Shown here one piece after another: positions 24,586-50,554 of a stretch of 64,000 nt of DNA. Source of the stretch: Chloroflexota bacterium (GTDB lineage: Bacteria > Chloroflexota > Chloroflexia > Chloroflexales > Herpetosiphonaceae); NCBI GenBank assembly GCA_020161265.1, contig JAIUOC010000003.1, positions 363,024 through 427,023 on the forward strand. The letters are read 5' to 3'. A program made the position numbers and the translations under genes. A model generated the notes under the pieces. The model was not told where the DNA came from, made no database searches, and saw nothing but the letters and a program-made list of their open reading frames with translations. The stretch's first letter is position 1; every line of letters begins with the position of its first letter.

Positions 24586-24997
24586 CCCAGTCATTGTCAG
24601 CGATCTTTATCCAGTTAATGTTGGCGATCAAACGATCTTGATTCGCCAAACCGCCTTGGTTGGTGTGGATTATGTTGCCAATAGCGGGCAACCAATTAGT
24701 AGCGTGGTTCAGCAATCTAATCCAATCGATGTCATTGACTTAAATCAGTGGCTCCAGCAGCCAATTGGCCAACAAGCCAATCGCTTAGCCTTATTTGTGG
24801 TTGGGCAAACAGCTATGGGCGTGGTAGTCGATCAATTGGGCGACCCGATTAGCACAGCCTTGAGCCTGCAACCACTGCCAAGCCTAGTTTCCGATAGCTT
24901 GCTCGACCCCAGCATTTTGGGCATTATTATGCTCGATGAACGCCCATGCCTCATGCTTGATCTTGAACTGTTTGTGCTGGTACACGCCAAGCGCTAG
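24578..24997 (+). CDS. CheW-like coupling protein 2 (divergent)
   Basis: About 139 aa. Its ATG at 24578 overlaps the cheW-1 stop (ATGGTTAA). Hydrophobic CheW-like core (LALFVVGQTAMGVVVDQLGDPIS...ILGIIMLDERPCLMLDLELF). The ORF-track start at 24461 is an upstream in-frame extension. Confidence 0.6.
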   Translation: MVNPVIVSDLYPVNVGDQTILIRQTALVGVDYVANSGQPISSVVQQSNPIDVIDLNQWLQQPIGQQANRLALFVVGQTAMGVVVDQLGDPISTALSLQPLPSLVSDSLLDPSILGIIMLDERPCLMLDLELFVLVHAKR

Positions 24998-25019
24998 ACC
25001 AGTGCCAAGGAGTCTGCTC

Positions 25020-26519: not shown

Positions 26520-26534
26520 GCGAGGAGCTATCGC

Positions 26535-28844
26535 ATGGGCGGTTTTGATTTATCAGCATTTTTTGGCCAGTTTCGCGAAGAAACTGAAGAGAATGTGCGG
26601 GCCTTGACCACAGGCTTATTGGCCTTGGAGTCAAACCCAGGCGATCGCGAAGCGATTGATACGATTTTTCGGGCGGCACATACGATCAAAGGCTCGGCGC
26701 GCATGCTGGGTCAAGTCGATATGGGTCGTTTGGCACATACCATGGAAAGTTTGCTTTCGGCCTTGCGCAGTGGCATGCTAGCCATGAATTCGAGCATTAA
26801 CGATGTGCTGCTGGCCAGTGTTGATGTGCTGCTAGTGCTGAATTCCCAAGTCAACGAGCCGCCGCCAACCGATCCCAACGTTGATCGTTTGGTGGAGCAA
26901 CTGAATGCCTTGGCGGCTGGTGAAAGCTTGCCGACTGCGCCAATAGCGCCTAAAGCTGCGCCAATTGTCGCGCCAGTGGCCGAACCAGAACCTGAGCCAG
27001 CGCCAGTTGTGCTTGAGCAACCCAAGCCCGAACCAGTGGTTGCTAAGCCAGCCGTGCCTGCCAAACCCAAAAAATCAGCCTCAGCCGAAGCCCCCAAGCC
27101 AGTGATTAGCACTCGTTCGACCGTGCGTGTGCCAATTTCGCGCTTAGATCGGTTGTTGAATACCGCTGGTGAGTTGGTGGTGACCCGTCAATTGCACCTT
27201 GAGCATGTCGCCGATCTTGAGGCTTTGGATAAATTGCTGACCAAAAGTGAGCGCCTGAGCCAACAATTGAGCGAGCGCTTGACGGGCCAACGCGTGACCT
27301 TTCAGCAACGGCGCGAGGCCAGCGAATTAGCCAGCCAACTGCAAAATCTGGCCCAATCGACGCGCAATCAGTTGCGCTTGCTCACCGAGCGTTGGAGCAG
27401 CCATAGCGCTGCTAGCGAGGCCTTGGTCGATGAACTTGAAGCCGAGGTCATGGCGACCCGTTTGCAACCTGTGGCTGGTTTGTTTGCGCCAATTCCTCGG
27501 GCCGTGCGCGAGCTGGCTCGTTCGTTGGGCAAAGAAGTTAACTTAATCACCGAAGGCGAAACCACCGAGGCCGACCGCAAAGTGATTGAGTTAATGGCTG
27601 ATCCGTTGGTACATTTGGTGCGCAACGCGCTTGATCATGGCATCGAAAGCCCCGATGAGCGTGTGAAAGCTCACAAGTCTGCCGAAGCAAGCTTGCGTTT
27701 AGAAGCTCGCTCGTTGGGCGGCACAATTGAAATTATTATCAGCGACGATGGCCGTGGAATCGATCCAGCAGTGATTCGGGCAACTGCAATTAAACGGGGA
27801 ATTATCGAGGCTGATGCCGCGACTCGCTTGCGTGATGAAGAAGCTTTGGAGTTAATCTGGCAGCCTGGTTTTTCCACCAGCGCAATCATCACCGATGTTT
27901 CAGGCCGTGGCGTGGGCATGGATGTGGTGCGGGCGGCAGTGACCGAGGTTGGCGGGCGGGTCGATGTGCATTCGGTGCTTGGCCAAGGCACGACCTTCAC
28001 GCTGATTTTGCCAATTACCTTGCTGACCACGCGCGTGTTGTTATTTGATGTGGCTGGCACGACCTATGCCTTGCCCTCGACCGCCTGTTTAGGTGGGCGG
28101 CGGGTTGCTGGCGGGCAAATTCAGACCGTCGAAGGGCGACCAACCGTACGGGTTGATGAGCGCAGCGTGAGCATTGTAGCGCTTGCGCCCTTGCTTGAGC
28201 AGCGCGGCCCCTTGCCACAACCATCGGATATTTCCAATTTGGTGATTTTGGGGCCAGCTAATCGCCCATTGGCCTTGCTTGTCGATAAATTGGTCGATGA
28301 ACGTGAGGTGGTGGTTAAATCGTTGGGCGCGTTGTTGAACGAACAGCGTTTATGCACTGGTGCGATTGCCCTGCCTGATGGGCGTTTGGTGTTAGTGCTC
28401 AATCCCTTGGCGATTGCGGCGCGGGCGCGTGAATGGGGCAAACCAGTCGCTTTGCCAGCGCCAACCAAGCTCCAACCCGCCAAATTATTGGTCGCGGAAG
28501 ATTCATTTACCACCCGCGAACTACTTCGCTCAATGCTGCAATCGGCGGGCTATGTGGTTGAAACGGCGATTAACGGCCAAGATGCGCTTGACAAGCTCAA
28601 TCACAATTCCTACGATCTGCTGGTAAGCGATGTTGAAATGCCGTTGCTAACTGGCTTTGAGCTAACCCGCCGTGTGCGTGCCCATGACCGTTTGCGCCAA
28701 CTGCCAATTATCATTATCACCAGCTTGGCCCGCGATAGCGATCGGCGTGAAGGCTTGTTGGCTGGTGCGCAAGCCTATATCGTCAAAAGCCAGTTTGATC
28801 AAAGCAACTTGCTCGAAACGATTCATCAATTACTTGGTCGCTAA
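26535..28844 (+). CDS. cheA: CheA histidine kinase fused to a C-terminal receiver (CheA-REC hybrid)
   Basis: P1 Hpt (FRAAHTIKGSARMLG), Pro/Ala/Glu-rich linker, HATPase (SDDGRGID, GRGVGMDVV, GQGTTF), P5 CheW-like, C-terminal REC (LLVAEDS...LLVSDVEMP...KS). Confidence 0.9.
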   Translation: MGGFDLSAFFGQFREETEENVRALTTGLLALESNPGDREAIDTIFRAAHTIKGSARMLGQVDMGRLAHTMESLLSALRSGMLAMNSSINDVLLASVDVLLVLNSQVNEPPPTDPNVDRLVEQLNALAAGESLPTAPIAPKAAPIVAPVAEPEPEPAPVVLEQPKPEPVVAKPAVPAKPKKSASAEAPKPVISTRSTVRVPISRLDRLLNTAGELVVTRQLHLEHVADLEALDKLLTKSERLSQQLSERLTGQRVTFQQRREASELASQLQNLAQSTRNQLRLLTERWSSHSAASEALVDELEAEVMATRLQPVAGLFAPIPRAVRELARSLGKEVNLITEGETTEADRKVIELMADPLVHLVRNALDHGIESPDERVKAHKSAEASLRLEARSLGGTIEIIISDDGRGIDPAVIRATAIKRGIIEADAATRLRDEEALELIWQPGFSTSAIITDVSGRGVGMDVVRAAVTEVGGRVDVHSVLGQGTTFTLILPITLLTTRVLLFDVAGTTYALPSTACLGGRRVAGGQIQTVEGRPTVRVDERSVSIVALAPLLEQRGPLPQPSDISNLVILGPANRPLALLVDKLVDEREVVVKSLGALLNEQRLCTGAIALPDGRLVLVLNPLAIAARAREWGKPVALPAPTKLQPAKLLVAEDSFTTRELLRSMLQSAGYVVETAINGQDALDKLNHNSYDLLVSDVEMPLLTGFELTRRVRAHDRLRQLPIIIITSLARDSDRREGLLAGAQAYIVKSQFDQSNLLETIHQLLGR

Positions 28845-28894
28845 AGTAGCGCCGCCCGAATCAAGGCTTATCTGCCCCTGCGAGGAGTTTTTCA

Positions 28895-29254
28895 ATGAGT
28901 GAACGTATCTTAGTTGTTGACGATAGCAAACTGGTTACCGATATTGTCAAAATGCGGCTGGAAATGTATGGCTATGCTGTCGATTTGGCCTACAGTGGCG
29001 AGGAAGCGCTGCAAAAAATCGGCGATCTCACGCCCGATTTGGTAGTGTTAGATGTGCAGATGCCTGGGATTGATGGCTATGAGGTTTGCCGTCAGTTACG
29101 CGCCAATCCCTTGTTTGAAGAGCTGCCAATTATCATGCTAACATCGATGGATGATAAACGGGCAGGCTTTGAAGCTGGAGTTGACGATTATCTCAACAAA
29201 GATCTCGATTTGCTCGATTTGCCTAATCGGGTCAAATTGTTGTTGGGTATGTAA
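28895..29254 (+). CDS. cheY: CheY-like single-domain response regulator
   Basis: ILVVDDS...LVVLDVQMPGIDG...LTSMDDK. Confidence 0.85.
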   Translation: MSERILVVDDSKLVTDIVKMRLEMYGYAVDLAYSGEEALQKIGDLTPDLVVLDVQMPGIDGYEVCRQLRANPLFEELPIIMLTSMDDKRAGFEAGVDDYLNKDLDLLDLPNRVKLLLGM

Positions 29255-30336
29255 TGATGACAGGGCCGCTTGCACCAATTCGAGTGTTGGTTGTTGATGA
29301 TTCGGCGGTTTCGCGCCGAGTCATCAGCACTATTTTAGCCAATGATCCCGCGATTCAAGTGGTTGGCGAGGCCCGTGATGGCCGTGAGGCGGTGCAATTG
29401 GTGGCAGCGTTGCAACCCGATATTATCACAATGGATGTGCGCATGCCGGTGATGGATGGTTTGCAGGCCACCGAAGAAATTATGGCCTATCATCCTACGC
29501 CGATTTTGGTGATCACCTCATCGCTGACCCGCCATGATCGTAATTTAACCTTTCAAATGCTCAACGCCGGAGCTTTGGAAGTTTGGGAGAAACCAACCGA
29601 CCTGACCCTAGCTCAAGGCGAAGCTAATCGGATGCGGCTGTTGGAGCGGGTCAAGGTGCTTTCACGAGTTAAAGTGTTGACCCATTTGCGCGGGCGACGG
29701 CGCAAATCGCCAACGACCGAAACCAACATTCCCTTATTATTGGCCTCGGCTAGCCCGCCAAGCCAACGCTGGCTGATTGTGGTTGGGGCTTCGACTGGCG
29801 GCCCACGAGTGTTATACAAACTCCTGCATAGCCTGCCTGCGAGCATCCCCGCAAGCATTATCATTGTGCAGCACATCGCCGAGGGATTTGTTGGTACAAT
29901 GGTAGACTGGTTGGACAATCATTCGCCCTTGACGGTGGAATTGGCGCAACACCGGGGTAGTTTGAAAAATGGCCATGTCTATGTTGCGCCCGATACCCAT
30001 CACTTGCGGGTTGATGCCAACTGGACGGTACATTTGGAAACTGAACCCGATAATTTGCTCTATCCATCAGTCGATGTGACTATGCAATCAGCTGCCAAAG
30101 TGTTGCCGAAACAGACGATCGGGGTGTTATTGACTGGTATGGGTCGCGATGGAGCGCAAGGTTTGTTGGCTTTACGCCGCTCTGGCGCTCGCACGATCGC
30201 CCAAGATCGAGCCACTAGCGCGATTTGGGGCATGCCACGGGCGGCAGAGGAAGCTGGGGCTGCCATGGAATTTTTAGCTGCTGATCTGATTGCGCCGCGT
30301 TTGGTGGCGTTGCTCAGCGAAACTGAACGTCGATGA
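29254..30336 (+). CDS. cheB: CheB protein-glutamate methylesterase (REC + CheB_methylest)
   Basis: Its start overlaps the cheY stop (TAATG). REC domain plus esterase motifs GASTGGP, HIAEGF and GMGRDGA. Confidence 0.9.
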   Translation: MMTGPLAPIRVLVVDDSAVSRRVISTILANDPAIQVVGEARDGREAVQLVAALQPDIITMDVRMPVMDGLQATEEIMAYHPTPILVITSSLTRHDRNLTFQMLNAGALEVWEKPTDLTLAQGEANRMRLLERVKVLSRVKVLTHLRGRRRKSPTTETNIPLLLASASPPSQRWLIVVGASTGGPRVLYKLLHSLPASIPASIIIVQHIAEGFVGTMVDWLDNHSPLTVELAQHRGSLKNGHVYVAPDTHHLRVDANWTVHLETEPDNLLYPSVDVTMQSAAKVLPKQTIGVLLTGMGRDGAQGLLALRRSGARTIAQDRATSAIWGMPRAAEEAGAAMEFLAADLIAPRLVALLSETERR

Positions 30337-31793
30337 GCGAGTTGAGCACTGAACAATGGATGATCATCCGCGATTATCTAGCTCAACGGGCTGGCTTATA
30401 TCTCGATGATAGCCGCATGCGCCAAGGCCGCATGCTCGTTCAGGAGCGTTATCGGCAATTACAAATTAGCCCCGCTGCCTATACATTGCGAATTCAAGAC
30501 CCCACCAATGGCGGCGAGTTGCAATGGTTGGCTGAACGCTTGGCTAACCATGAAACCCAATTTTTTCGCAACCCTGCCCATTTTCGGGCCTTACGTGAGC
30601 ATATTCTGCCTGAATTGCAGCGTTCGCGCTCGCCGTTGCGGCCATTGCGCTGTTGGAGTGCTGGTTGCTCAACTGGCGAGGAACCCTATAGCATGGCCAT
30701 GGTTGCCTTGCAACAATGGGGCAATCCGCCGAGCCGCCCGATTTCGATTTGGGCTACCGATTTGAGCAATGTGCCGTTGGAGCGAGCGATTGCCGCCGAG
30801 TATCGTGGTCGTTCGCTAACGAATGTGCAAGCCGACTACAGACAATGGTTTGAACCGCAATCCAACGGAGCGTTGCGTGTCAGCGAAGCCGTGCGATCCT
30901 TGGTACAATTTGAACAGCACAATTTGCTTGATGCCCTGCCACATTGGGCCTATCAACTTGATGTGGTATTTTGCCAGAATGTCACGATCTATTTTCAGCT
31001 GGAAACATGTCGCCAATTGATCGAACGGATTTATGCGGCGATGGCGGTTGGTGGCTATCTGCTCTTGGGCTTTTCCGAGTCGCTGTGGGGCATTTTTGAT
31101 CGCTTTGAAACGGTCGAGGTGGCTGGGGCGTTTATCTATCGCAAAGGCGATGGTCAACCTAAACCACGCCCCAACTTGAGCGAACGACCAATCACCAAGC
31201 CGCTGAATAAGCCAGCCGAGCCAATACCAGCGCGGCCACGCCCAAGTACGCGGCCATTAGCGCCAGCTAGCCCAAGCAAGCCGCCCGATGTGACGAGTTT
31301 GTTGGATGAAGCGCGGAAATTGCGTGGCCAAGGCCAGCAGCGACGTGGATTAAGCCTGTTGGCGAGTATTGCGCCCAACCAGCGCCAGCCAGCAATTTTG
31401 GCTTTAGCCGCGCAATTGCACGCCGATCTTGGGCAGCATGAGCAAGCGGCGGCTGAGGCGCGGCGGGCATTAGAGCTTGATGTGCTGCAAGATGCTGCCT
31501 ATGTCGTGCTGGGCATGATCGAACTTAACCAAGGCGCATGGGATAAAGCGATTAATTATCTTGAGCGAGCCAGCTATTTAGTGCCCGATTCGCCGACGAT
31601 TGCCTTTCATTTAGCTGAGAGCTATCGCCATCAAGGGCGAGCAACCGCCGCTTTACGTTATTATCAACATGCCTTGCGCAAATTGGCCCAACATTCAAGT
31701 AGCACGGTTATTGATGGAATTGCCGTGGGGTGGCTGCGTTCTGCTTGTGAACGCTGGATTGGCGGCTTAGAAGCCAGCCAAGGAACATTCTAA
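30333..31793 (+). CDS. cheR: CheR methyltransferase with C-terminal TPR repeats
   Basis: ATGA overlap with cheB. SAM-binding CWSAGCSTGEEPYSMAM. A Pro-rich linker, then TPR repeats. Confidence 0.85.
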   Translation: MSELSTEQWMIIRDYLAQRAGLYLDDSRMRQGRMLVQERYRQLQISPAAYTLRIQDPTNGGELQWLAERLANHETQFFRNPAHFRALREHILPELQRSRSPLRPLRCWSAGCSTGEEPYSMAMVALQQWGNPPSRPISIWATDLSNVPLERAIAAEYRGRSLTNVQADYRQWFEPQSNGALRVSEAVRSLVQFEQHNLLDALPHWAYQLDVVFCQNVTIYFQLETCRQLIERIYAAMAVGGYLLLGFSESLWGIFDRFETVEVAGAFIYRKGDGQPKPRPNLSERPITKPLNKPAEPIPARPRPSTRPLAPASPSKPPDVTSLLDEARKLRGQGQQRRGLSLLASIAPNQRQPAILALAAQLHADLGQHEQAAAEARRALELDVLQDAAYVVLGMIELNQGAWDKAINYLERASYLVPDSPTIAFHLAESYRHQGRATAALRYYQHALRKLAQHSSSTVIDGIAVGWLRSACERWIGGLEASQGTF

Positions 31794-38939: not shown

Positions 38940-39443
38940 ATGAACATAACAATTGTTGATGGCTTTACTCCAACCAATGAGGCTGAAGTTGCGGCTTTTG
39001 AGCAAGAGTTGGGCTGTCGTCTGCCAGAAGATTACCGCGCTTTTTTGCTACAACATAACGGCGGTCAGCCTGAGCTAACAGTTTTTGATATGAATAGTAA
39101 CTTGCTGCCTGATGATCAAAGTATAATCCACTATTTTTTATCCTTAGACCCAGCAGCGGAATCCTCTGAAATTCGTCAAGTAATCAGAACATTTACAGAA
39201 TATGAGACGCGGATTCCACCAGAGCTTTTGCCAATTGCCCACGATCTTGGAGGCAACCTAATTTGCTTGGGAATTCGTGGCGAGCAGCGGGGCAAAGTTT
39301 ATTTTTGGGATCATGAATTTGAGCTAGAAACTGAAGAAGAAGGCGATCTGTATTACAACGTTTCGTGTTGTAGCCCTTCATTTCAAGCATTCGTTGATAG
39401 CTTGTTGCCTGAATCCTCGCTTGATGTTGACGAGGCAGCATAG
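38940..39443 (+). CDS. SMI1/KNR4 (SUKH-1) family protein, immunity-protein-like
   Basis: 167 aa. LPEDYRAFLLQHNGG, IGD-like LGGNLICLGIRGEQRGKVYFWDHE, acidic C-terminus. AT-richer than its surroundings. Confidence 0.75.
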   Translation: MNITIVDGFTPTNEAEVAAFEQELGCRLPEDYRAFLLQHNGGQPELTVFDMNSNLLPDDQSIIHYFLSLDPAAESSEIRQVIRTFTEYETRIPPELLPIAHDLGGNLICLGIRGEQRGKVYFWDHEFELETEEEGDLYYNVSCCSPSFQAFVDSLLPESSLDVDEAA

Positions 39444-39677: not shown

Positions 39678-40317
39678 TTTGTTTCTCGCTTTCGGCTAGC
39701 AAATACTCGACGCGGGCAATCACCATATCGATGGCAATTGCATTCAATCCACCGCGTGGAATAATAATATCGGCATAGCGCTTCGTTGGCTCGACAAATT
39801 CAAGATGCATCGGGCGCACAGTATTGGTATATTGCTCGATCACCGATTCGATTGAGCGTCCACGTTCGGCAATATCGCGTTTGAGGCGGCGAATAAAGCG
39901 CAAATCGGCATCAGCATCAACATAGATTTTTACATCCATGCATTCGCGCAACACAGCTTCGGCAAAAATCAAAATGCCTTCGACCAAAATAACCGGACGC
40001 GGCTGCACATGCATCACCTCAGGCCGACGACCATAGCGCGTAAAATCATAAATTGGCACTTCAATCGTTGTACCATTGCACAAGGCCTCGATATGTTGCG
40101 CCAGCAAATTGCTATCGAGCGAGTTAGGGTGATCGAAATTGACTCGCAAGCGTTCTTCAAACGAAAGCTCAGCAAAATCACGATAATAGGAATCGTGCTG
40201 TAAAAATGCAATTCGTGATGGCCCGACGCGACTAAGAATCGCTTGGGAAACGGTAGTTTTGCCTGATCCAGTTCCGCCAGCGACCCCAATCACAATTGGT
40301 CGTTGCTCTGCGCTCAC
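39673..40317 (-). CDS. udk: uridine kinase
   Basis: P-loop IGVAGGTGSGKTT, LQHDSYYRD, DHP, ILVEGIL, DADADLRFIRRLKRDIAERGRS. Probable GTG start at 40317; the longer ORF-track N-terminus (to 40473) has no homology signal. Confidence 0.8.
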   Translation of the reverse strand: MSAEQRPIVIGVAGGTGSGKTTVSQAILSRVGPSRIAFLQHDSYYRDFAELSFEERLRVNFDHPNSLDSNLLAQHIEALCNGTTIEVPIYDFTRYGRRPEVMHVQPRPVILVEGILIFAEAVLRECMDVKIYVDADADLRFIRRLKRDIAERGRSIESVIEQYTNTVRPMHLEFVEPTKRYADIIIPRGGLNAIAIDMVIARVEYLLAESEKQI

Positions 40318-40509
40318 GCCGTTTGTCCTCCATTGTTCGCAAAAGGGGAGCAAAGAACAACTAGTTCTTTGCCCCCATCTGCGCCTATTGTACCTGATTA
40401 TGCTGGTTTTGCATGCGCTGGTTTTGCTCTTGACAGGGCCATATCGCTCTACTACTGTATAGCCACGCTGCAATCATCCCAAAAAAATTAGCGCTGAGGA
40501 GTTTGCACT

Positions 40510-41406
40510 ATGGGTATTCGTGGCTTATTTGTGGGAATCAATAGTTATAGCGAGCGGCCACTCAAGGGTTGTGTCAACGATGTAAGCGTAGTTCGTGAGT
40601 TGTTCAAAGCCCAACACGCTGCTGCCGATGATCAACTGCGTTTGATCACCGATGCTGCGGCTACGCGCCAAGCTATTATTGATAATTTGGGCTGGCTCGC
40701 CGAACCGCTCAACGATGGGCAGCCGGAAATTCGAATTTTTCACTATGCTGGCCATGGCGTACAACAGCCTGATCAAAATGGCGATGAACCTGATGGTGCT
40801 GATGAATGCCTCGCGCCAATTGATTATCCCAGCGCTGGCTTGCTGAGCGATGACCATTTAGCCGAGCTATATCAAGGATTTTTGGGTACAACGCGGCTCA
40901 TTTTGTTGATGGATTGCTGTCATTCGGGCACGATCAGCAAAGACCCTTTTTCCGATATTCGGTATCGCACCTTAACTCCCGCCAAAGTGGTTTATGATGA
41001 AATTCGTGCCAAGAAGCAGGCCTATCAACAACACCAGGTTGATAGCGTAGCGCAACAAATTCTTGATCTGCAACAACGGAGCGCCGACCCCAGCGAAATT
41101 GCTAAGTTTGCAGGCGAGTTGGTCAGTTCGTTGCAAAAACAGAGTTTTGGCCAACGCCCACAGCACGAAAACACCATTTTGATTTCAGCCTGCAAGGCCG
41201 AGCAAGTTGCCGCCGATGCCAATTTTGGCGGAACCTACCACGGTGCCATGACCTTCTTTTTGAAAAATATTCTCAGCGAAAATCCCCAAATTAGCTATGC
41301 CAACCTTGGCGAACAGCTTCGCCGTAGCCTCTACGACAATAAGTTTCAACAAATTCCCCAACTTGAGTGCCCAAATAGTCTAATTAACCAGCCCTTCCTA
41401 CGTTAA
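40510..41406 (+). CDS. caspase-like peptidase (C14 family, metacaspase/HetF-type)
   Basis: Catalytic dyad context HYAGHG (His) and LLMDCCHSG (Cys). 298 aa, no signal peptide. Confidence 0.8.
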   Translation: MGIRGLFVGINSYSERPLKGCVNDVSVVRELFKAQHAAADDQLRLITDAAATRQAIIDNLGWLAEPLNDGQPEIRIFHYAGHGVQQPDQNGDEPDGADECLAPIDYPSAGLLSDDHLAELYQGFLGTTRLILLMDCCHSGTISKDPFSDIRYRTLTPAKVVYDEIRAKKQAYQQHQVDSVAQQILDLQQRSADPSEIAKFAGELVSSLQKQSFGQRPQHENTILISACKAEQVAADANFGGTYHGAMTFFLKNILSENPQISYANLGEQLRRSLYDNKFQQIPQLECPNSLINQPFLR

Positions 41407-41473
41407 TTAACTAAGCAGCCAATTGCTAGGCGATTGGCTGCCCTCATCGATCACGCTGCACTGAGGAGCTTGT

Positions 41474-42487
41474 ATGAGTTCAGATCATGCTCACGATTGT
41501 CCATGTGCTGATCCTATCACCCAATTACGCCAGCTCTTTGTCAACAGAACTATGGGCACGCGGATTAACGCCGGACAAGATCCGGTTCGACGGGCGGTGT
41601 TTCTTAAGGCGCATGGCGGGGCCAAAGCCACCTGGTGGGTTCGCCCTGATTTGCCAGCCGAGCTACGAGTTGGCTTGTTGGCCTACGATCAGCTGGCAGC
41701 ATGGCTGCGCTTTTCCAGCGATACCGTGCCTTTTGCCAGCGACCTTGGCACAACCTTGGGGGTAGGCATCAAGCTGTTTGGTATACACGGCCGTAAATTA
41801 TTAACTGGTGAAGAAGCTGCATTAACTCACGATTTGGTCTTGCAAAATTATCCAGTCTTTTTTGTCGATACTGCCAAGGATATGTGCGAATTTACCTACG
41901 AAGGCTTGGTGGGTGATGGCTATGATGCGTATCTCGCCAAACACCCCAAAACCCGCAAAATTCTCGATTTGATGCAGCAAAATCTGGCCAGTGTCTTCGA
42001 TGCAGTGTATTGGAGCGGCCTGCCCTATGCGTTTGGCCAAGGTCGTTACGTCAAATATCGCTTGGCGCTTGAAGCGCTCAATCCACAGCCACCCAGTAAC
42101 CCACAGCTCAACCCCAACTTTTTGCACGATGATTTGCGTAGTCGTTTGTTGGCAGGCCCGATTGATCTGCACTTTAGCATTCAACTACGCACCAATCCTA
42201 AGCTGATGCCGTTGGATGCAGCAACCGTCGAATGGTCAACCGAGCTAGCCCCGCCGCTGCATGTGGCAACCCTAACCCTGCCCCAACAAGATATTGATGC
42301 GCCTGGCCAAGCCGCCTATGTCGAAAATCTGGCCTTCAATCCTTGGCATGCACTGCCTGAACATGCTCCAGTTGGCAGCATCAGTGAAGCTCGCAAAGTA
42401 GTCTATCAAGCTTCGGCGGAGTTGCGCCGCCAACGCAATGGCATTCCGATTGTGGAGCCACGCCAACCTCGTCACGATTTAACCTAG
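41474..42487 (+). CDS. catalase-related (mini-catalase/allene-oxide-synthase-like) haem protein, putative
   Basis: Distal-His-like RRAVFLKAHGGAKATWWV. Proximal haem-ligand motif R-x3-Y-x2-S/A-x3-R (RKVVYQASAELRR). About 337 aa, the size of small catalase-related proteins. Confidence 0.45.
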   Translation: MSSDHAHDCPCADPITQLRQLFVNRTMGTRINAGQDPVRRAVFLKAHGGAKATWWVRPDLPAELRVGLLAYDQLAAWLRFSSDTVPFASDLGTTLGVGIKLFGIHGRKLLTGEEAALTHDLVLQNYPVFFVDTAKDMCEFTYEGLVGDGYDAYLAKHPKTRKILDLMQQNLASVFDAVYWSGLPYAFGQGRYVKYRLALEALNPQPPSNPQLNPNFLHDDLRSRLLAGPIDLHFSIQLRTNPKLMPLDAATVEWSTELAPPLHVATLTLPQQDIDAPGQAAYVENLAFNPWHALPEHAPVGSISEARKVVYQASAELRRQRNGIPIVEPRQPRHDLT

Positions 42488-42527
42488 CCCTCCAAAATGC
42501 TTGAATGGTTTACAAGGAGATGTGATT

Positions 42528-44465
42528 ATGGCTTGTGCTGAGATTGTCAGCGTCGCGATTTATCCTCCCGTTGGCTTTGCCCGCGTCGGAAATAGCCCAA
42601 ATGAGTTTTTTTATGGCCCCGAAGTGCTGGGTGCACCCCAAGTTGACCCCGATTTGTTTCGCGATCCGAGTGGCGCGATCAAACGCCAAGCGGCGCGGTT
42701 TCGGGTTTATGGCTTGAATGCCGCTGGTGAGGTGATTTGCGAGTTAAACCAAACCAATCCTGATGTGCAAGAAATTGTTTGGACGGCGCAGCTCGCCAAT
42801 CAAAAAGCCGCGTGGTATGAATTTATCCAAGCACTGGATATTCCGGCCTCGGCTGATGGCAAAATTGTTAGCAAGCGCCGCAATGCCGATGTAACTGAGC
42901 GCGATCAATTGACGATCGATGGTGGCACGCGCAGCATTTGTGGCTTGAATGTCAATCCTCAGGGCGAAGAGGCGATCTATGCCTTTGATCACGGCGCATT
43001 CTTTGGTAAGCAAGTTTATTTGGGCGAATTGCGCACCGATCAACAGGGCAATTTGATTGTGCTGGGCGGGCGGGGTCACTCAGCTTCGGCCCATGGCAAG
43101 CCCTTAACCACCTTTGCCGATAACGATGATTGGCATGATGATACTGCCGATGGCCCGATTGAGGCCGTGGTTAAGCTGAGCGATGGACGGGTTTTGCAGG
43201 CAACTCATGCTTGGGTGATTGTTGCGCCGCCTGATTATGCGCCAGGCACAAATTCGATTATGACAGGCTATGATTTGCTGTTTGAAGTGGCGATGCAGCT
43301 TGATTCGACGCTTGCGCCAGCCAAGCCACGTTTCAGCAGCGAAATTTATCCGTTGCTCTCACGGTTTAGCCAATTGCAATGGGTTAATGCTGGCTTTGCG
43401 CGGAGTTTTGGTTGGGGCAGCCCCAGCGATTTCAATAATCCTGAGTTGATCGCTCGTTTGGGCGATCCTAGTGCTGCCAGCGAACCGTTGCGCCAAGCGG
43501 TTTTGGCTCAAATGCGCAATCCTAGCAATCCCTATATTGATCCCGAAGGCTTGCCATTGTTTTATGGCGATGCGATTACGCTCAACACCAAAACCACCGA
43601 TCCCCAAGAGTGGCAGGCAATTTTGCCTAGCCAATATCGTTGGCTAGAGCAATGGGCCAATGGCGATTTTATTGCCGATGGCTTGCCCGTGGTCAGGCCG
43701 TGGGAGCAGCTTGATCCCGCTGAGCAGGCCTACAATCTCACGCGGGCGGCGCTTGATGCAACCTTGGGCGGGCCGTTTCACCCCGGCTGCGAATTCACTT
43801 GGCCGTTACGCCATACCTCGATGTATGTAGCACCATTTCGACTCAAACGCCGCACCAGCCCTGAGCCAGATTGGGGCGATACGCTCGATGCGGCTACTGC
43901 CTTAGCTCCCGATGGGATGTTGTATGCCAGCGCTGCTGGGGCAATTACGCGTTGGATGGCCGTGCCTTGGCAAACCGATACCTCAAGCTGTCTCTCGGCC
44001 TATATGGGCTATGCCGGAACTTATTTGCCAACTTTTTGGCCCGCTCGTGTGCCCAACGATGTGCTTAGCCAAGAGAGCTACCAGATTATTATGAACCCTG
44101 ATGCTACGCCTGAAGAGCGTGCCCAAGCCTTCGCACCGACTGCCCGCCGCAAGTGGCTGCGCGGCATGGTCTACACCGAGAGCATTCCACCAGGCCATAT
44201 TCCAACCGTGCCAGCAATTACTAAATTTACCAACGAATGGGATACCGTGGGCATTATCATCGCCCAAACTGGGCCTGAACATAGCGCTAGCTTCCCGCAA
44301 ACGCTATGGGTTGAAACAGGCCGCCACGTTGAAGCTCAGGCTCCCCAATTAACCCGTAGCCTAGCCGCCGAGCCAGAAACTGATCTGGTTGATAGCGACC
44401 TCAATTGGCCACAACAACGCCTCAAGCGAGGACGCAAAAATGCTGCCGAAGCCAATAACGATTGA
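42528..44465 (+). CDS. LodA-like amino-acid oxidase (CTQ quinoprotein family; L-lysine epsilon-oxidase / glycine oxidase GoxA relatives)
   Basis: AAGGAGA RBS. N-terminal LodA signature IYPPVGFARVGNS. Conserved Asp-x3-Cys (WQTDTSSC) with a Trp about 60 residues downstream (RRKWLRG), as for the cysteine tryptophylquinone pair. Confidence 0.65.
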   Translation: MACAEIVSVAIYPPVGFARVGNSPNEFFYGPEVLGAPQVDPDLFRDPSGAIKRQAARFRVYGLNAAGEVICELNQTNPDVQEIVWTAQLANQKAAWYEFIQALDIPASADGKIVSKRRNADVTERDQLTIDGGTRSICGLNVNPQGEEAIYAFDHGAFFGKQVYLGELRTDQQGNLIVLGGRGHSASAHGKPLTTFADNDDWHDDTADGPIEAVVKLSDGRVLQATHAWVIVAPPDYAPGTNSIMTGYDLLFEVAMQLDSTLAPAKPRFSSEIYPLLSRFSQLQWVNAGFARSFGWGSPSDFNNPELIARLGDPSAASEPLRQAVLAQMRNPSNPYIDPEGLPLFYGDAITLNTKTTDPQEWQAILPSQYRWLEQWANGDFIADGLPVVRPWEQLDPAEQAYNLTRAALDATLGGPFHPGCEFTWPLRHTSMYVAPFRLKRRTSPEPDWGDTLDAATALAPDGMLYASAAGAITRWMAVPWQTDTSSCLSAYMGYAGTYLPTFWPARVPNDVLSQESYQIIMNPDATPEERAQAFAPTARRKWLRGMVYTESIPPGHIPTVPAITKFTNEWDTVGIIIAQTGPEHSASFPQTLWVETGRHVEAQAPQLTRSLAAEPETDLVDSDLNWPQQRLKRGRKNAAEANND

Positions 44466-45510
44466 TTGTTTGATCGTTGGCGGCGGAATTGCTGGCTGCG
44501 CCTGTGCCGTGCATCTCGCACGGCATGGGTGGCAGGTGCTTGTGCTCGAACGCCCGCCTACACGGCCACAACGCTTTGGTGAAAGTTTAGCGCCTGCCGC
44601 TCGTCCGTTGGTGCACGAGCTTGGGTTAGATCTTGATCGAGAGCATTCGATTTGCCCAGGCAATCTGGCAGCTTGGGGATCAGATGCGCTCTATCATCAT
44701 GATTTTTTGGCAACGCCCTATGGTCATGGCTGGCATCTCAATCGACCTCATTTTGAGCAGCAGCTCCACCAGTGCTGCCTTGGATTAGGCGTAACATTCA
44801 GTTCAGCGTCAATCAGCTACCTCGAACGCCAGCCCGAACGCTGGATTATTGGGGTTGGAGAGCAATTATTTCAAACGCGCTGGCTGATTGATGCCACTGG
44901 CCGAGCACGTTGGCTAGCACGGCGGCTGGGAGTACAAACCCAGTTCGATGGCCCCAAACAGCTCGGTTTGGTGGCGATGCTGGAGCCGCAAGCCCAGCCA
45001 TGGCCGGATCAGCGGAGTTTGGTCGAGGCGGTAGCTGATGGTTGGTGGTATGTGGCGCGAGTGCCGCAAGCCCAAATGGCGACAATTTTTATTGGTCAAC
45101 CAACCACCAACCAACGCCAAAAGCTTGCTCAGGCCGAGGGTTGGTGGCAATCGCTCAAGCGCAGCACTTGGGCCAAACAATGGCTTGAGCAACATCAGCT
45201 TTGTGCCCAACCATATTGGGTCGATGCCAGCAGCAGTCGTTTGGATCGCTGCTATGGCAATGGTTGGCTGGCGATCGGTGACGCGGCCATGAGCTATGAT
45301 CCGCTGGCGGCGCATGGGATTACAGTTGGATTAACCAGCGCCCGTGATGCCGCCCAATGTTTAATCGCTGCCAACCAAGGCTCAGTTGCTGCGCTGTATG
45401 GCTATGGTCATCAGCTGGAATTGGCTTGGCACGCTTATCGTCAGCTTCGCCAACAGATCTATGCCCAAGAACAGCGCTGGCCTGATCGCCCATTTTGGCA
45501 ACCACGCTAG
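44440..45510 (+). CDS. LodB-like FAD-dependent flavoprotein (cofactor-maturation partner of LodA-type oxidases)
   Basis: Overlaps the 3' end of lodA-like by 26 nt. FAD fingerprint CLIVGGGIAGCACAVHLARHG...VLVLER. Halogenase/GG-reductase-like fold. 356 aa. Confidence 0.6.
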   Translation: MLPKPITIDCLIVGGGIAGCACAVHLARHGWQVLVLERPPTRPQRFGESLAPAARPLVHELGLDLDREHSICPGNLAAWGSDALYHHDFLATPYGHGWHLNRPHFEQQLHQCCLGLGVTFSSASISYLERQPERWIIGVGEQLFQTRWLIDATGRARWLARRLGVQTQFDGPKQLGLVAMLEPQAQPWPDQRSLVEAVADGWWYVARVPQAQMATIFIGQPTTNQRQKLAQAEGWWQSLKRSTWAKQWLEQHQLCAQPYWVDASSSRLDRCYGNGWLAIGDAAMSYDPLAAHGITVGLTSARDAAQCLIAANQGSVAALYGYGHQLELAWHAYRQLRQQIYAQEQRWPDRPFWQPR

Positions 45511-45712
45511 CAAAAACCCTGAATTATGCTAAGATGCAGCAATCAAATTTTTGGCTGCTGCATGGAGTCAAACTCGTCCATACACTCCACCCATCAATTG
45601 CTCCATCACCCACAGCAGCATGCTTCAATCTGCTACGTTTGCTAGAGAATCAAACGTTGGTAGCCACAATTGTTGTGTGAGTTGAATTCCATTTGGCTTG
45701 GAAGGAGCTACG

Positions 45713-47086
45713 ATGGGCCATGATCATGCGCTGGTTATCGGCGCAAGCATTAGCGGTTTAGCGACCGCGCATATCCTCAGCCACTATTTTGCTCAAGTAA
45801 CGATTATTGAACGTGATAGTTTGCCCGACTCGATTGAGGTTCGATCTGGTTTGCCGCAAGCTCGCCACCTGCATCTGTTGTTGATGCGCGGAGCGCGTGA
45901 GCTTGAAACGCTCTTTCCTGGCATTGGGCAAGAACTCGTGGCTCACGGCGCACAGTCGGTCGATTTGATGAATGATTATCGCTACTTGATGGCTGGTGGT
46001 TGGGCCAAACCGCATCAATCAGCCCATCGCACAATTTCGGCCAGCCGCCCGCTCTACGATTGGGTGCTGTTGCAGCGTTTACGCCAAAACCCCAAAATTC
46101 GGATCGAAACCCAAACCGATGTGCTTGGCTTGGTTGGGGATTTGCGCCATGTGCGGGGCATTAACACCAAGCGCCGCGATACTGGGGTTGAGCAACAATT
46201 TCTAGCCGAACTCTTGGTTGATTGTAGTGGGCGTTCATCCAAGCTTGATCAATGGCTACAAGCGCTGGGTTGCCAAGCAGTACCCGAAACCGTGATTGCC
46301 TCGAATGTTGGCTACTGCTCACGACTCTATGCCAAGCCCGAAGGCTGGAACGAATGGAAGGGCTTATTTGTGCGCCAGCGACCATTGGTTAATCCACGCG
46401 GCGCGATTTTAACCGAGATTGAAGGCAATCGCTGGATGGTGACCTGTGGTGGTTTTAATGAGGCCAAGCCACCCCTTGATGAGAGCGAATGGCTGAATTG
46501 GCTCAACCAATTGCGCTCGCCAATTTTGTATGAATTGTTGAGTAAGGCCCAGCCAATTAGCCCATTGGTTGGTTTTGGCCGTACCGAAAATCGCCAACGC
46601 CATTATGAGCAAATTAGCCTGCCTGCGGGAGTGGTGGCGTTGGGTGATGCTGTTTGTGCGTTTAATCCAATTTATGGACAAGGTATTAGCAATGCCACCT
46701 TGGGCGCGATCTTGCTGAGCCAGCATTTAAAAGAACAAGATCGGGCTTCGGCAGCCTGGGGTCAGCGCTTTCAACAAGCACTCGCTAAAAGCAATCAATT
46801 TCCTTGGAGCATTGCGGTGGGCGAAGATGCCCGCTATAACGCCAGCGTCAAGCGTTCGTTTGGCGCAACTCTGCTGCGCAACTACTTCGACCAAATTAAC
46901 CTAGCATCAAGCAATAATCCGGTTGTGCTCAACCGCTTCACGCCGATTGTGCATATGACTGGCAATCCCAGTGGCTTACTGCACCCAGCGATGATCTGGA
47001 ATGTTATTAAAGGTCGCTTGAAGCCCCAAACGACCAACCCAACGCCCTCGATCCCTACCATTCTCAGCGCTAGCCAAGGAGCGTAA
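45713..47086 (+). CDS. class A FAD-dependent monooxygenase-like flavoprotein, paralog 1 of 3
   Basis: AAGGAG RBS. GxGxxG (VIGASISGL), DG-type motif (LVDCSGRSSKL), GD motif (LGDAVCAFNPIYGQGIS). Confidence 0.75.
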   Translation: MGHDHALVIGASISGLATAHILSHYFAQVTIIERDSLPDSIEVRSGLPQARHLHLLLMRGARELETLFPGIGQELVAHGAQSVDLMNDYRYLMAGGWAKPHQSAHRTISASRPLYDWVLLQRLRQNPKIRIETQTDVLGLVGDLRHVRGINTKRRDTGVEQQFLAELLVDCSGRSSKLDQWLQALGCQAVPETVIASNVGYCSRLYAKPEGWNEWKGLFVRQRPLVNPRGAILTEIEGNRWMVTCGGFNEAKPPLDESEWLNWLNQLRSPILYELLSKAQPISPLVGFGRTENRQRHYEQISLPAGVVALGDAVCAFNPIYGQGISNATLGAILLSQHLKEQDRASAAWGQRFQQALAKSNQFPWSIAVGEDARYNASVKRSFGATLLRNYFDQINLASSNNPVVLNRFTPIVHMTGNPSGLLHPAMIWNVIKGRLKPQTTNPTPSIPTILSASQGA

Positions 47087-47088
47087 CC

Positions 47089-48450
47089 ATGCTACAAGAT
47101 CATGCAATTGTGATTGGAGCCAGTATCAGCGGCTTGATTACCGCTCATATGCTGAGCCACCATTATGGTCGAGTCAGTGTGCTCGAACGTGATAGCTTGC
47201 CCGAGGCTGGCGATTTTCGCGCGGGCGTGCCCCAAGGTCGCCATGTGCATTTGTTGCTGATTCGCGGCGCACGTGAGCTGGAAACGCTTTTTCCAGGCAT
47301 CAACCAAGAACTGCAAGCTCTTGGGGCACAAGCCGTCGATATGATCAACGATTGTCGCTATTACCTCAAAAATGGCTGGACAGTACCTCAGCCAACCGAA
47401 TTGAAAACGCTCTCGGCAACTCGCCCTTTGTTTGATTGGGCAATTCGGCGGCGCTTATTGCAAAACCCCAAGATTCAGTTTTTGGCCCAACACGATGCCC
47501 TGAATCTGATTGGCAATAGCCGTCATATTCAAGGGGTGCAGGTGCGCAATCGCCAAGATGGCAGCGAACAGAGCTTGCATGCTGATCTGGTTGTCGATGC
47601 CAGCGGGCGCAATTCCAAATTGGCGGAATGGTTGGGCGAGCTTGGTTGTGGCAAAGTTAGCGAAACTGTGCTTGATGCCAAACTTGGCTATACTTCGCGG
47701 CTCTATGCCAAGCCCGAAGGTTGGAAAGAATGGAAAGGCCTGTTTGTGATGCAACAGCCGCCGACCATTCCCAAAGGTGCGATTTTGCTCGAAGTTGAGG
47801 GCAATCGCTGGATTGTGACTGGCGGTGGGGTCAATCATGCCAAGCCACCAACCGATGAAGCTGGTTTTATGCAATGGCTGCGCGAATTGCCCTCGCCAAT
47901 TTTGGCCGATTTATTGAGTAAATCGCAGCCGCTTAGCCCAACCAGTGGCTATGGTCGTACCGAAAATCGCCAACGCCACTACGAGCGTATGCACCTGCCA
48001 GCCGGAGTAATTGCCTTGGGTGATGCCGTTTGTGCCTTTAATCCGGTGTATGGGCAAGGTATTAGCACCGCCACCTTGGGGGCAATCTTGCTTGGTACAC
48101 ATTTAAAAGAGCAAGATCGTGGCTCGGCAGCATGGGGCCAGCGGTTCCAACAAGCCTTAGCCAAGAACAATCAATTCCCTTGGGAAATGGCGAGCGGCGA
48201 GGATTCGCGTTATGATTCATCATTCAAACGCCCATTTTTCAGCAAGCTGATTGCGCCCTATTTTGATCAAATTAATCAGGCCAGTTTGAATAGCAACGTG
48301 GTGTTCACTCAATTTATTAAAACGATTCACCTGATCGACAATCCGAATGCATTGTTTCATCCACGGGTGTTTATCCCCGTGCTGCTGAGCAAAATTCGGC
48401 CTAAATATTCTGATGCAGTGCCAAACTTGCCTTTGCAGGTCAACGTATAG
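47089..48450 (+). CDS. class A FAD-dependent monooxygenase-like flavoprotein, paralog 2 of 3 (about 65% identical to paralog 1)
   Basis: Same three motifs (VIGASISGL; VVDASGRNSKL; LGDAVCAFNPVYGQGIS). Starts 2 nt after the paralog-1 stop. Confidence 0.75.
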   Translation: MLQDHAIVIGASISGLITAHMLSHHYGRVSVLERDSLPEAGDFRAGVPQGRHVHLLLIRGARELETLFPGINQELQALGAQAVDMINDCRYYLKNGWTVPQPTELKTLSATRPLFDWAIRRRLLQNPKIQFLAQHDALNLIGNSRHIQGVQVRNRQDGSEQSLHADLVVDASGRNSKLAEWLGELGCGKVSETVLDAKLGYTSRLYAKPEGWKEWKGLFVMQQPPTIPKGAILLEVEGNRWIVTGGGVNHAKPPTDEAGFMQWLRELPSPILADLLSKSQPLSPTSGYGRTENRQRHYERMHLPAGVIALGDAVCAFNPVYGQGISTATLGAILLGTHLKEQDRGSAAWGQRFQQALAKNNQFPWEMASGEDSRYDSSFKRPFFSKLIAPYFDQINQASLNSNVVFTQFIKTIHLIDNPNALFHPRVFIPVLLSKIRPKYSDAVPNLPLQVNV

Positions 48451-48524
48451 CATAGGCAACTGAATCAAGCCCTGCTATACTACTAGAATAGGCAGGAGTA
48501 CATTTCAGATTTGGGAGGTGTGCT

Positions 48525-49883
48525 ATGAGACGAGACCATGCGATTGTGATCGGGGCCAGCATCGGTGGATTATTGAGTGCCCGCGTGTTGAGTGATGTGT
48601 ATGCCAAAGTGACGATTTTGGAGCGCGATACGTTGCCCGATGGGGTGCAATTTCGGGCAGGCGTGCCGCAAGGTCGCCAATTGCACTTGCTGCTGATGCG
48701 CGGCTTGCTCGAATTAGAAAAACTGTTCCCCAAATTGCGCGAAGATATGAAGGCGCTTGGCGGCAACGAGCTGGATCTGATGAACGATTGCCGCTATTTA
48801 TTTGCGGCAGGCTGGGCCGAACCACGACCCTCGGATTATCGCAGCATCATCGCCACCCGCCCCTTGTTCGATGCAGCGATTCTTGGGCGGATTCGCCAAA
48901 TTCCCAATATTGAAATTCAAACTCGCCAAGAAGTGACGGATTTGCTCTTTCACGGGCGGCAAGTTGTCGGGGTCAAGCTGCGCAATCGTGATACTGGCGA
49001 GCAGCATGAACTTAACGCCAACTTGGTTGTCGATGCGGCTGGCCGCCCATCCAAGCTGCCCGAATGGCTAGAACAACATCAATTTGGGCGCGTCAAAGAG
49101 ACCATTTACAAATCGGATGTGGGTTATGCCACCAGAATGTACACCGCGCCAGCCGATTGGCAAGGCTGGCCAGCGATCTTTGTGATGCCGATGCCGCCGC
49201 ATATTCGCCATGGTGCAACCTTCCTTAAAGTTGAAAACGATCAATGGCTCTTGACGATTGGCGGAGTTGGCAGCCAGCGCCCACCAACCGATAGCGCTGA
49301 GTTTGAGGCTTGGCTGGCGCGGATGCGCACACCATTGATTGCTGAAATTACCCAGAAATTTACGCCTGCCAGCCAAGTGTATGGCTATGCCAAAACCGAA
49401 AATCGTTGGGTGCATTACGAACAACTACCCGTTATGCCCGCTGGCCTGATTGCTATTGCCGATAGCGTGTGTGCCTTGAATCCAATTTATGGCCAAGGCA
49501 TCACCAATACTGCCATGAGCACGCAGGTTTTGGCCAAGCATTTGCAACGCGAAGGCATTGGCAGCGCACCTTGGGCCTTGAGTTTCCAAAAAGCCTTGGC
49601 ACGCCGCAACAAAGCGGGCTGGCTCACCACCATCAGCGAAGATTCACGGCTGGCTGATACGCCAACCTATCGCCCAATCTTGCCGATTCGCGTGCTGCAA
49701 TGGTATAGCGATAAAGTGAATTTGGCGGCGGCGGGCAATCGGGCTGCTACCAACGCAATGGTTGGTGCGATTCATATGATTGGCTCAGCTGCGAGCTTAT
49801 TTACGCCCAAAGTATTGCTTGCCGCCTCGCGCTTTTTCCGTTCACAACCGCCAAGCAGTGTGCCAGCAGCACCCAATAAATAA
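48525..49883 (+). CDS. class A FAD-dependent monooxygenase-like flavoprotein, paralog 3 of 3 (more divergent)
   Basis: GGGAGG RBS. VIGASIGGL; VVDAAGRPSKL; IADSVCALNPIYGQGIT. Confidence 0.75.
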   Translation: MRRDHAIVIGASIGGLLSARVLSDVYAKVTILERDTLPDGVQFRAGVPQGRQLHLLLMRGLLELEKLFPKLREDMKALGGNELDLMNDCRYLFAAGWAEPRPSDYRSIIATRPLFDAAILGRIRQIPNIEIQTRQEVTDLLFHGRQVVGVKLRNRDTGEQHELNANLVVDAAGRPSKLPEWLEQHQFGRVKETIYKSDVGYATRMYTAPADWQGWPAIFVMPMPPHIRHGATFLKVENDQWLLTIGGVGSQRPPTDSAEFEAWLARMRTPLIAEITQKFTPASQVYGYAKTENRWVHYEQLPVMPAGLIAIADSVCALNPIYGQGITNTAMSTQVLAKHLQREGIGSAPWALSFQKALARRNKAGWLTTISEDSRLADTPTYRPILPIRVLQWYSDKVNLAAAGNRAATNAMVGAIHMIGSAASLFTPKVLLAASRFFRSQPPSSVPAAPNK

Positions 49884-49984: not shown

Positions 49985-50554
49985 ATGCAACCTATGAGTC
50001 ATCATCTCAATGGTAAACGGGTGGCGATTATCGCAACTCATGGCTTTGAACAGAGCGAGCTTGAAGAACCCAAAGCGGCCTTAGAGCAAGCCGGAGCCAA
50101 AACCCATGTTATTTCGCTCAAGGCTGGCACGATTCGTGGCTGGAAAGAGCAAGATTGGGGCAGTGAAGTTGCTGTCGATTATACGCTTGAGCAAGTTAAT
50201 CCTGCTGATTATGATGGGTTGTTGTTGCCTGGCGGCGTGATGAACCCCGATAAATTGCGGCGCGAAACCAGCGTTTTGAATTTTGTACGAGCCATGGCCG
50301 AAGCTGGCAAGCCAATTGCGGCAATTTGCCATGGCCCATGGACATTGATTGATGCTGGAATTGCCAAAGGCCGCATGCTCACATCGTACCCAACCTTGCA
50401 AAACGACCTGAAAAATGCGGGAGCCGAGTGGGTTGATCGCGAGGTCGTGGTCGATAATGGCCTGGTGACCAGCCGCAATCCCCAAGATATTCCCGCCTTC
50501 AATCGCAAATTTATTGAAGAATTAGGCGAAGGTTTACATAAACAAGTTGGCTAA
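49985..50554 (+). CDS. DJ-1/PfpI family protein (intracellular protease/deglycase type)
   Basis: Nucleophile elbow AAICHGP. LLPGG. 189 aa. Start possibly at 49994. Confidence 0.85.
   Translation: MQPMSHHLNGKRVAIIATHGFEQSELEEPKAALEQAGAKTHVISLKAGTIRGWKEQDWGSEVAVDYTLEQVNPADYDGLLLPGGVMNPDKLRRETSVLNFVRAMAEAGKPIAAICHGPWTLIDAGIAKGRMLTSYPTLQNDLKNAGAEWVDREVVVDNGLVTSRNPQDIPAFNRKFIEELGEGLHKQVG

Follow-up and report, generated by a model that had tools for sequence, protein, structure and literature searches.

A LodA/GoxA-family putative CTQ-dependent oxidase between a catalase-fold protein and a LodB-like flavoprotein in a Chloroflexota genome

Two pairs of an oxidase and its maturase are the closest described relatives of the locus considered here. 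LodA/LodB of Marinomonas mediterranea (PDB 3weu, 2ymw) is an L-lysine epsilon-oxidase with its maturase, and GoxA/GoxB, known from Pseudoalteromonas luteoviolacea (PDB 6byw) and M. mediterranea, is a glycine oxidase that uses cysteine tryptophylquinone (CTQ), again with its maturase. CTQ formation depends on LodB and GoxB (PMC4417212, PMC7876137), which act on the mono-hydroxylated tryptophan of their large partner protein (PMC7876137); in LodA the CTQ residues are C516 and W581, spaced by 65 (PMC4417212). In a survey published in 2015, about 1% of bacterial genomes had lodA-like genes, with shares of 2.2% in Chloroflexi, 2.9% in Cyanobacteria and 3% in Alphaproteobacteria (PMC4417212). LodA-like proteins whose N-terminus carries a catalase domain (pfam00199 / cd08152 y4iL-like) fell without exception into group III of that survey, and no member of this group had been characterised at the time (Campillo-Brocal et al. 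2015, PMC4417212). The present analysis concerns a window of 64,000 nucleotides (nt) from a Chloroflexota bacterium of the family Herpetosiphonaceae (contig JAIUOC010000003.1), and within it three genes on one strand, at 41474-45510 (+) of the window, that encode a catalase-fold protein, a LodA-like oxidase and a LodB-like flavoprotein.

We read these genes, with a probability of roughly 0.8, as a cassette for a CTQ-dependent amine or amino-acid oxidase, the flavoprotein maturase that it needs and a haem partner that handles hydrogen peroxide (H2O2). A preliminary description of this DNA had recognised the oxidase and flavoprotein genes as a pair, which stands, and had overlooked the third gene directly upstream. 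The oxidase, a protein of 645 amino acids (aa), is a member of a known and widespread family and is already annotated as such, and the new points are mild ones: the recognition of a split catalase-related partner and the location of the correct cofactor tryptophan.

The placement of the oxidase in the LodA/GoxA family, proposed in the preliminary description, agrees with domain, sequence and fold comparisons. Both Pfam domains are matched far above their gathering scores (LodA_N with an expectation value E of 7.4e-77 and 258.6 bits, cutoff 26.3 bits; LodA_C with E 2.6e-36 and 125 bits, cutoff 25 bits), and only two NCBIfam models are hit, GoxA with 436.5 bits over residues 4-600 and LodA with 200.9 bits in an alignment that ends at residue 494. 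A phmmer search of the PDB returned two solved relatives only, GoxA of P. luteoviolacea (E 2.6e-49) and LodA of M. mediterranea (E 8e-39). The AlphaFold model, built on 53 homologues, has a predicted local distance difference test (pLDDT) score of 84; when it was compared with the PDB by Foldseek, the top 50 matches were all GoxA or LodA (E 1e-37 to 1e-31), the best being GoxA (E 1e-37, template modelling (TM) score 0.74), with LodA at E 7e-33. An identical protein is deposited at NCBI as ‘LodA/GoxA family CTQ-dependent oxidase [Chloroflexi bacterium]’, after which the nearest sequence shares 57% identity. The further suggestion that the family is rare outside marine Gammaproteobacteria does not hold: the oxidase has more than 2400 scored homologues, spread over Myxococcota, Bacteroidota, Bacillota, Verrucomicrobiota, Actinomycetota and further phyla, Chloroflexi among them, in line with the survey frequency given above.

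Residue conservation was counted in an alignment of 79 full-length family proteins, and gene order in a sample of 80 related loci from reference genomes, fetched with LodA residues 2-202 as reconstructed via PDB alignment. LodA of M. mediterranea itself is not in the sample and is represented by two complete Marinomonas orthologues (L002 and L003), whose identity to the N-terminal 201 residues of the M. mediterranea protein is 76% and 69%. GoxA residue numbers were taken from the names of PDB mutants and from HMMER alignments; the mutant entries D678N and D678A confirm the numbering of D678. Both segments that the preliminary description had picked out as family motifs proved to be such. The N-terminal block IYPPVGFARVGNS aligns to KIYPPLGIARVGNGP of GoxA and VHPSIGVARLGNA of LodA, and its P13, A18, R19 and G21 are invariant in all 79 sequences. 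The second segment, PWQTDTSSC with its preceding proline, falls on PWQSDAASC of GoxA, so that D484 corresponds to D678, the counterpart of LodA D512, and C488, the CTQ cysteine, to C682; W481, Q482, D484 and C488 are likewise invariant (79/79, LodA orthologues included).

The cofactor tryptophan was misplaced in the preliminary description, which had expected it about 65 residues after the cysteine. Tryptophans follow C488 at +16, +55, +83 and +106, and none stands at +65. The predicted CTQ tryptophan is W504 at +16: by alignment it occupies the column in which the two Marinomonas LodA orthologues have their tryptophan at Cys+65, it is invariant across the 79 sequences, and a profile alignment to GoxA sets it on W697, which in the P. 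luteoviolacea enzyme lies 15 residues after C682. Spacing between the two residues ranges from 13 to 65 over the family, the value of 65 being confined to Marinomonas LodA orthologues. W543, at +55, was considered for the same role and rejected, as it is conserved in 66 of 79 sequences, is replaced by tyrosine throughout the LodA clade and aligns to GoxA W755. When the window oxidase is aligned against the CTQ-forming residues, a check that the preliminary description had itself proposed, C488 and W504 coincide with the cysteine and tryptophan of GoxA and of the LodA orthologues. Two active-site residues targeted by mutagenesis in GoxA PDB entries, F316 and H583, are also conserved, as F196 and H418. 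The locus closest to LodA of M. mediterranea comes from Marinomonas aquiplantarum CECT 7732 (L001, 5998-6897). Its lodA orthologue, which shares 89% identity with that protein, stays open for only 299 codons and then gives way to unrelated sequence; it may be a gene disrupted in that strain or an assembly problem.

The flavoprotein gene is coupled to the oxidase gene in the manner of lodA and lodB. The oxidase reading frame runs from 42501 to 44465 (+), with its ATG at 42528 and its TGA stop at 44463-44465, and the flavoprotein gene begins with an ATG at 44440, which gives an overlap of exactly 26 nt, as the preliminary description had stated. Genes called independently on a public contig with identical DNA agree in all three genes and in the overlap. 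In about 74 of the 80 related loci a lodB-like gene lies directly 3' of the lodA-like one, and this adjacent pairing matches the literature (PMC4417212). Among 91 NCBIfam models that match the flavoprotein, GoxB (240 bits) and LodB (199.9 bits) are the two best, with full-length alignments, and QhpG reaches 160 bits; the Pfam matches are Trp_halogenase, DAO and FAD_binding_3. The N-terminal FAD-binding GxGxxG fold is represented by VGGGIAG at residues 12-18, and DAO, FAD_binding_3 and NAD_binding_8 match residues 9-41. In the PDB the flavoprotein is related to flavin halogenases and to QhpG, a peptidyl-tryptophan dihydroxylase (7ctq, E 5.6e-12). QhpG shares the flavoprotein superfamily and also makes CTQ, in quinohemoprotein amine dehydrogenase, but its target is a separate small subunit and it inserts both oxygens.

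Upstream of the oxidase gene, the 337-aa protein is, by its predicted structure, a small catalase-fold putative haem protein. It has no Pfam or NCBIfam match at E<0.01, and its relationship emerged from phmmer, which aligned it, R-x3-Y motif included, with the 33-kDa protein MAP_2744c of Mycobacterium avium subsp. paratuberculosis (PDB 3e4w, E 3e-5). The AlphaFold model (pLDDT 93) has its best structural matches in MAP_2744c (3e4y/3e4w, E 1e-16) and the coral allene oxide synthase 1u5u (6e-14), which are of similar size but only about 21% identical to it and have another genomic partner, and it also matches many true catalases (E ~1e-13, TM ~0.65-0.70). R307, Y311 and R318 are invariant in 48 homologues and H47 is conserved in at least 90% of them; from general knowledge of catalases, we take R307 and Y311 to be the catalase-type proximal arginine and tyrosine, and H47 to be the distal histidine. 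Two homologues, P0224 and P0238, are among the few with a precomputed PF00199 match.

The link between this protein and the oxidase family is visible in other genomes. A fused LodA-like protein of Brevibacillus (P0007, 948 aa) resembles both window proteins: its N-terminal domain shares 56% identity over 322 aa with the 337-aa protein, and its C-terminal oxidase part is 55% identical to the window oxidase. Fused catalase-LodA proteins occur in 12 of the 80 loci and the split form in 2, and a search for homologues of the 337-aa protein yields many stand-alone versions of about 340 aa, mostly labelled ‘hypothetical protein’; the four of these whose surroundings were checked (in Chitinophaga, Moorena, Pedobacter and a metagenome-assembled genome) all lie directly upstream of a lodA-like and lodB-like pair. 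Given these fusions, split loci and stand-alone neighbours, catalase-like gene, lodA and lodB together form a recurrent cassette, which in the window is in its split form. The same combination of a catalase-fold domain, a LodA-like oxidase and a LodB-like gene defines the likeness to group III, from which the window locus differs in that the catalase-like module is not fused but has a gene of its own, 40 nt upstream; split forms are common in other genomes, whereas the 2015 survey lists fusions only (PMC4417212). Judged by this module and by its clustering with catalase-fused proteins, the window oxidase would most resemble group III.

By analogy with the LodA and GoxA systems we infer how the three products could work together. 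The precursor oxidase would gain a first hydroxyl group on W504, and the flavoprotein, as a partner-specific maturase of the LodB/GoxB type, would then complete the oxygenation of W504 and the C488-W504 thioether cross-link post-translationally, which would yield CTQ with Asp484 beside the cofactor. The substrate of the mature enzyme, a primary amine or an amino acid, would form a Schiff base with the quinone and be oxidatively deaminated, with release of ammonium, H2O2 and either an aldehyde or a keto acid. Most likely, the haem partner would consume the H2O2 made by the oxidase, either to detoxify it or as the co-substrate of a peroxidase reaction. Glycine and the epsilon-amine of lysine are both improbable as substrates, and the suggestion of the preliminary description that the specificity could be a different one is reasonable.

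Several observations weigh against this reading and set its limits. Both the oxidase and the flavoprotein fall below the equivalog cutoffs of the NCBIfam models that match them: the oxidase reaches 436.5 of 750 bits for GoxA (NF038173) and 200.9 of 600 bits for LodA (NF038172), and the flavoprotein 240 of 400 bits for GoxB and 199.9 of 400 bits for LodB (the pair of models NF038171 and NF038174) and 160 of 240 bits for QhpG. Substrate and exact chemistry are therefore not transferable from GoxA or LodA. Residues 490-498, in the loop between C488 and W504, are modelled with pLDDT below 50. The upstream protein fails the Pfam catalase model PF00199 at E<0.01, and true catalase activity is uncertain, as MAP_2744c, its closest solved relative, is only ‘catalase-related’. 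The closest lodA-like homologues that were checked, P0006 and P0008, have no adjacent catalase-like partner, and catalase-associated members are dispersed inside one large clade of a neighbour-joining tree, so that this partner is accessory and not essential to the family. A promoter and terminator scan of 40300-46000 gave fewer matches than shuffled sequence and no operon-delimiting sites, and no characterised group III or catalase-linked LodA-like enzyme was found in the literature.

That the window encodes a true glycine oxidase, an orthologue of GoxA with its GoxB, would agree with GoxA and GoxB being the best NCBIfam models of the two proteins and with GoxA being the closest solved structure of the oxidase. 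The resemblance extends to the two-domain fold, the PWQxDxxSC motif, the short Cys-Trp spacing (+16 vs +15), the conserved counterparts of F316, H583 and D678 and a flavoprotein gene immediately downstream. Yet both scores lie far under the equivalog cutoffs, identity to P. luteoviolacea GoxA is about 22% over the Foldseek structure-based alignment, and the window oxidase is about 170 residues shorter and without the N-terminal insertions of GoxA. GoxA Y766 and H767, mutated in 6vmf and 6vmv, are apparently not kept, aligning to P554 and P555 in a weakly aligned region of low pLDDT. The window cassette also has a catalase-like partner gene, an association recorded for group III and not for group II, where GoxA is found (PMC4417212), and altogether orthology to GoxA seems improbable. 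An L-lysine epsilon-oxidase, orthologous to LodA and with an antimicrobial, H2O2-releasing role, is very improbable. The Pfam domains bear the LodA name, and with LodA the window protein shares the N-terminal block with its ARxGN core, the aspartate four residues before the CTQ cysteine, the CTQ tryptophan and the lodB-like gene downstream. Against this, the LodA model scores 201 bits where 600 are called for and its alignment stops short at residue 494, identity to LodA-clade proteins is 26-28%, and the neighbour-joining tree puts the two in different major clades. The long 65-residue loop from Cys516 to Trp581 of Marinomonas LodA corresponds to 16 residues in the window oxidase, and a dedicated H2O2-handling partner would be ill-suited to an enzyme whose role is to export H2O2. 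Decay of the three genes into non-functional remnants has a sole hint in its favour, the divergent C-terminal tail of the oxidase (residues 606-645), modelled with low confidence, and is scarcely credible in view of three intact reading frames, Shine-Dalgarno sites before the lodA-like and lodB-like starts, the presence of all family-invariant residues checked and the identical gene calls on the public contig.

The role of the haem protein leaves room for a different kind of alternative, in which it is no scavenger of H2O2 and takes part either in cofactor biogenesis, in a haem-dependent step like that of MauG in the synthesis of tryptophan tryptophylquinone, or in a second, H2O2-dependent conversion of the oxidase product. 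The cassette would then amount to a pathway of two enzymes and not to an oxidase with a protectant. Repeated fusion and strict adjacency argue for a tight functional coupling, the closest folds include the non-catalases MAP_2744c, allene oxide synthase and chanoclavine synthase, and the first hydroxylation of the tryptophan in LodA and GoxA, which LodB and GoxB do not perform and which is considered autocatalytic (PMC7876137), would leave room for a helper. It should be noted, however, that many close lodA-like genes lack a catalase-like partner, which is therefore not generally required for CTQ formation, and that the simplest role of a catalase fold beside a source of H2O2 is the removal of H2O2; we regard the alternative as unlikely. 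It is intriguing, if equally doubtful, to suppose that the haem protein is an obligate catalytic partner for this clade of CTQ oxidases, which uses H2O2 formed in situ on the aldehyde or imine product or in the first hydroxylation of the tryptophan. Were this so, quinoprotein and haemoprotein would make up a coupled system of a new kind, whose substrate resembles neither glycine nor lysine. The preferred reading, of a CTQ oxidase with its maturase and an H2O2-consuming partner, is the one to which the features listed in Table 1 are assigned.

Table 1. Positions in the window of the three genes of the cassette and of the sites within and between them.
Feature	Position	Strand	Basis
Catalase-related putative haem protein (mini-catalase, MAP_2744c / y4iL-like), stand-alone, 337 aa	41474..42487	+	phmmer, model, homologues
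Shine-Dalgarno-like AAGGAG, 8 nt before the lodA-like ATG	42514..42519	+	sequence reading
LodA/GoxA-family putative CTQ-dependent oxidase, 645 aa	42528..44465	+	Pfam, NCBIfam, PDB phmmer, model
N-terminal family block IYPPVGFARVGNS, residues 11-23	42558..42596	+	alignment to GoxA, LodA
WQTDTSSC motif, residues 481-488	43968..43991	+	alignment to GoxA PWQSDAASC
Asp484	43977-43979	+	aligns to GoxA D678
Cys488, CTQ cysteine	43989-43991	+	aligns to GoxA C682
Trp504, predicted CTQ tryptophan (Cys488 + 16)	44037..44039	+	alignment to GoxA, LodA orthologues
Shine-Dalgarno-like GAGGA, 6 nt before the lodB-like ATG, within the lodA-like 3' end	44429..44433	+	sequence reading
LodB/GoxB-like flavin adenine dinucleotide (FAD) flavoprotein, putative CTQ maturase, 356 aa	44440..45510	+	NCBIfam, Pfam, PDB

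The genes that flank the cassette on the same strand were considered as further members. A metacaspase gene (40510-41406, +; Peptidase_C14, E 6e-26) ends 67 nt upstream of the catalase-related gene and was rejected, since it adjoins no lodA-like gene in the 80 related loci. Downstream lie three paralogous flavoprotein genes in tandem (45713-47086, 47089-48450 and 48525-49883, +), whose products are about 455 aa long and of which the first two copies are 60% identical; as a group (45713-49883) they were likewise rejected as members, standing beside a lodA-like gene in 0 of 80 loci. The second copy is homologous to the polyether-ionophore epoxidases MonCI and Lsd18/LasC (E ~1e-67), and no polyketide synthase was found in the scanned parts of the window. 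Directly after these epoxidase-like genes, a DJ-1/PfpI family protein is encoded (49985-50554, +; E 1e-54). Members of that family often handle reactive carbonyls, and a link to the product of the oxidase is speculative.

Farther from the cassette, a SMI1/KNR4 (SUKH-1) family protein is encoded at 38940-39443 (+); proteins of this family are often immunity proteins of polymorphic toxin systems. In an 861-aa protein (16534-19119, +), a zinc ribbon occurs together with a Ser/Thr protein kinase domain and with two FGE-sulfatase (formylglycine-generating enzyme-like) stretches, and a similar protein with kinase and FGE-sulfatase parts lies near the catalase-lodA-lodB cassette of another locus (L088), which may be coincidence. 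A chemotaxis cluster at 24936-31793 (+), with a methyl-accepting chemotaxis protein, a CheA-like hybrid kinase, CheB and a fusion of CheR with tetratricopeptide repeats, looks like ordinary chromosomal context.

For annotation the gain is small: a ‘hypothetical protein’ of about 340 aa that is encoded just ahead of many lodA-like genes can be given the name of a catalase-related partner, and the cofactor tryptophan of family members is to be placed by alignment and not by the 65-residue spacing of LodA. No member of the clade that is accompanied by a catalase-fold partner has been characterised, and the compact three-gene cassette described here would be a convenient recombinant target in the search for a third CTQ oxidase specificity. 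It could also help to explain why haem proteins and CTQ oxidases have repeatedly become fused or adjacent.

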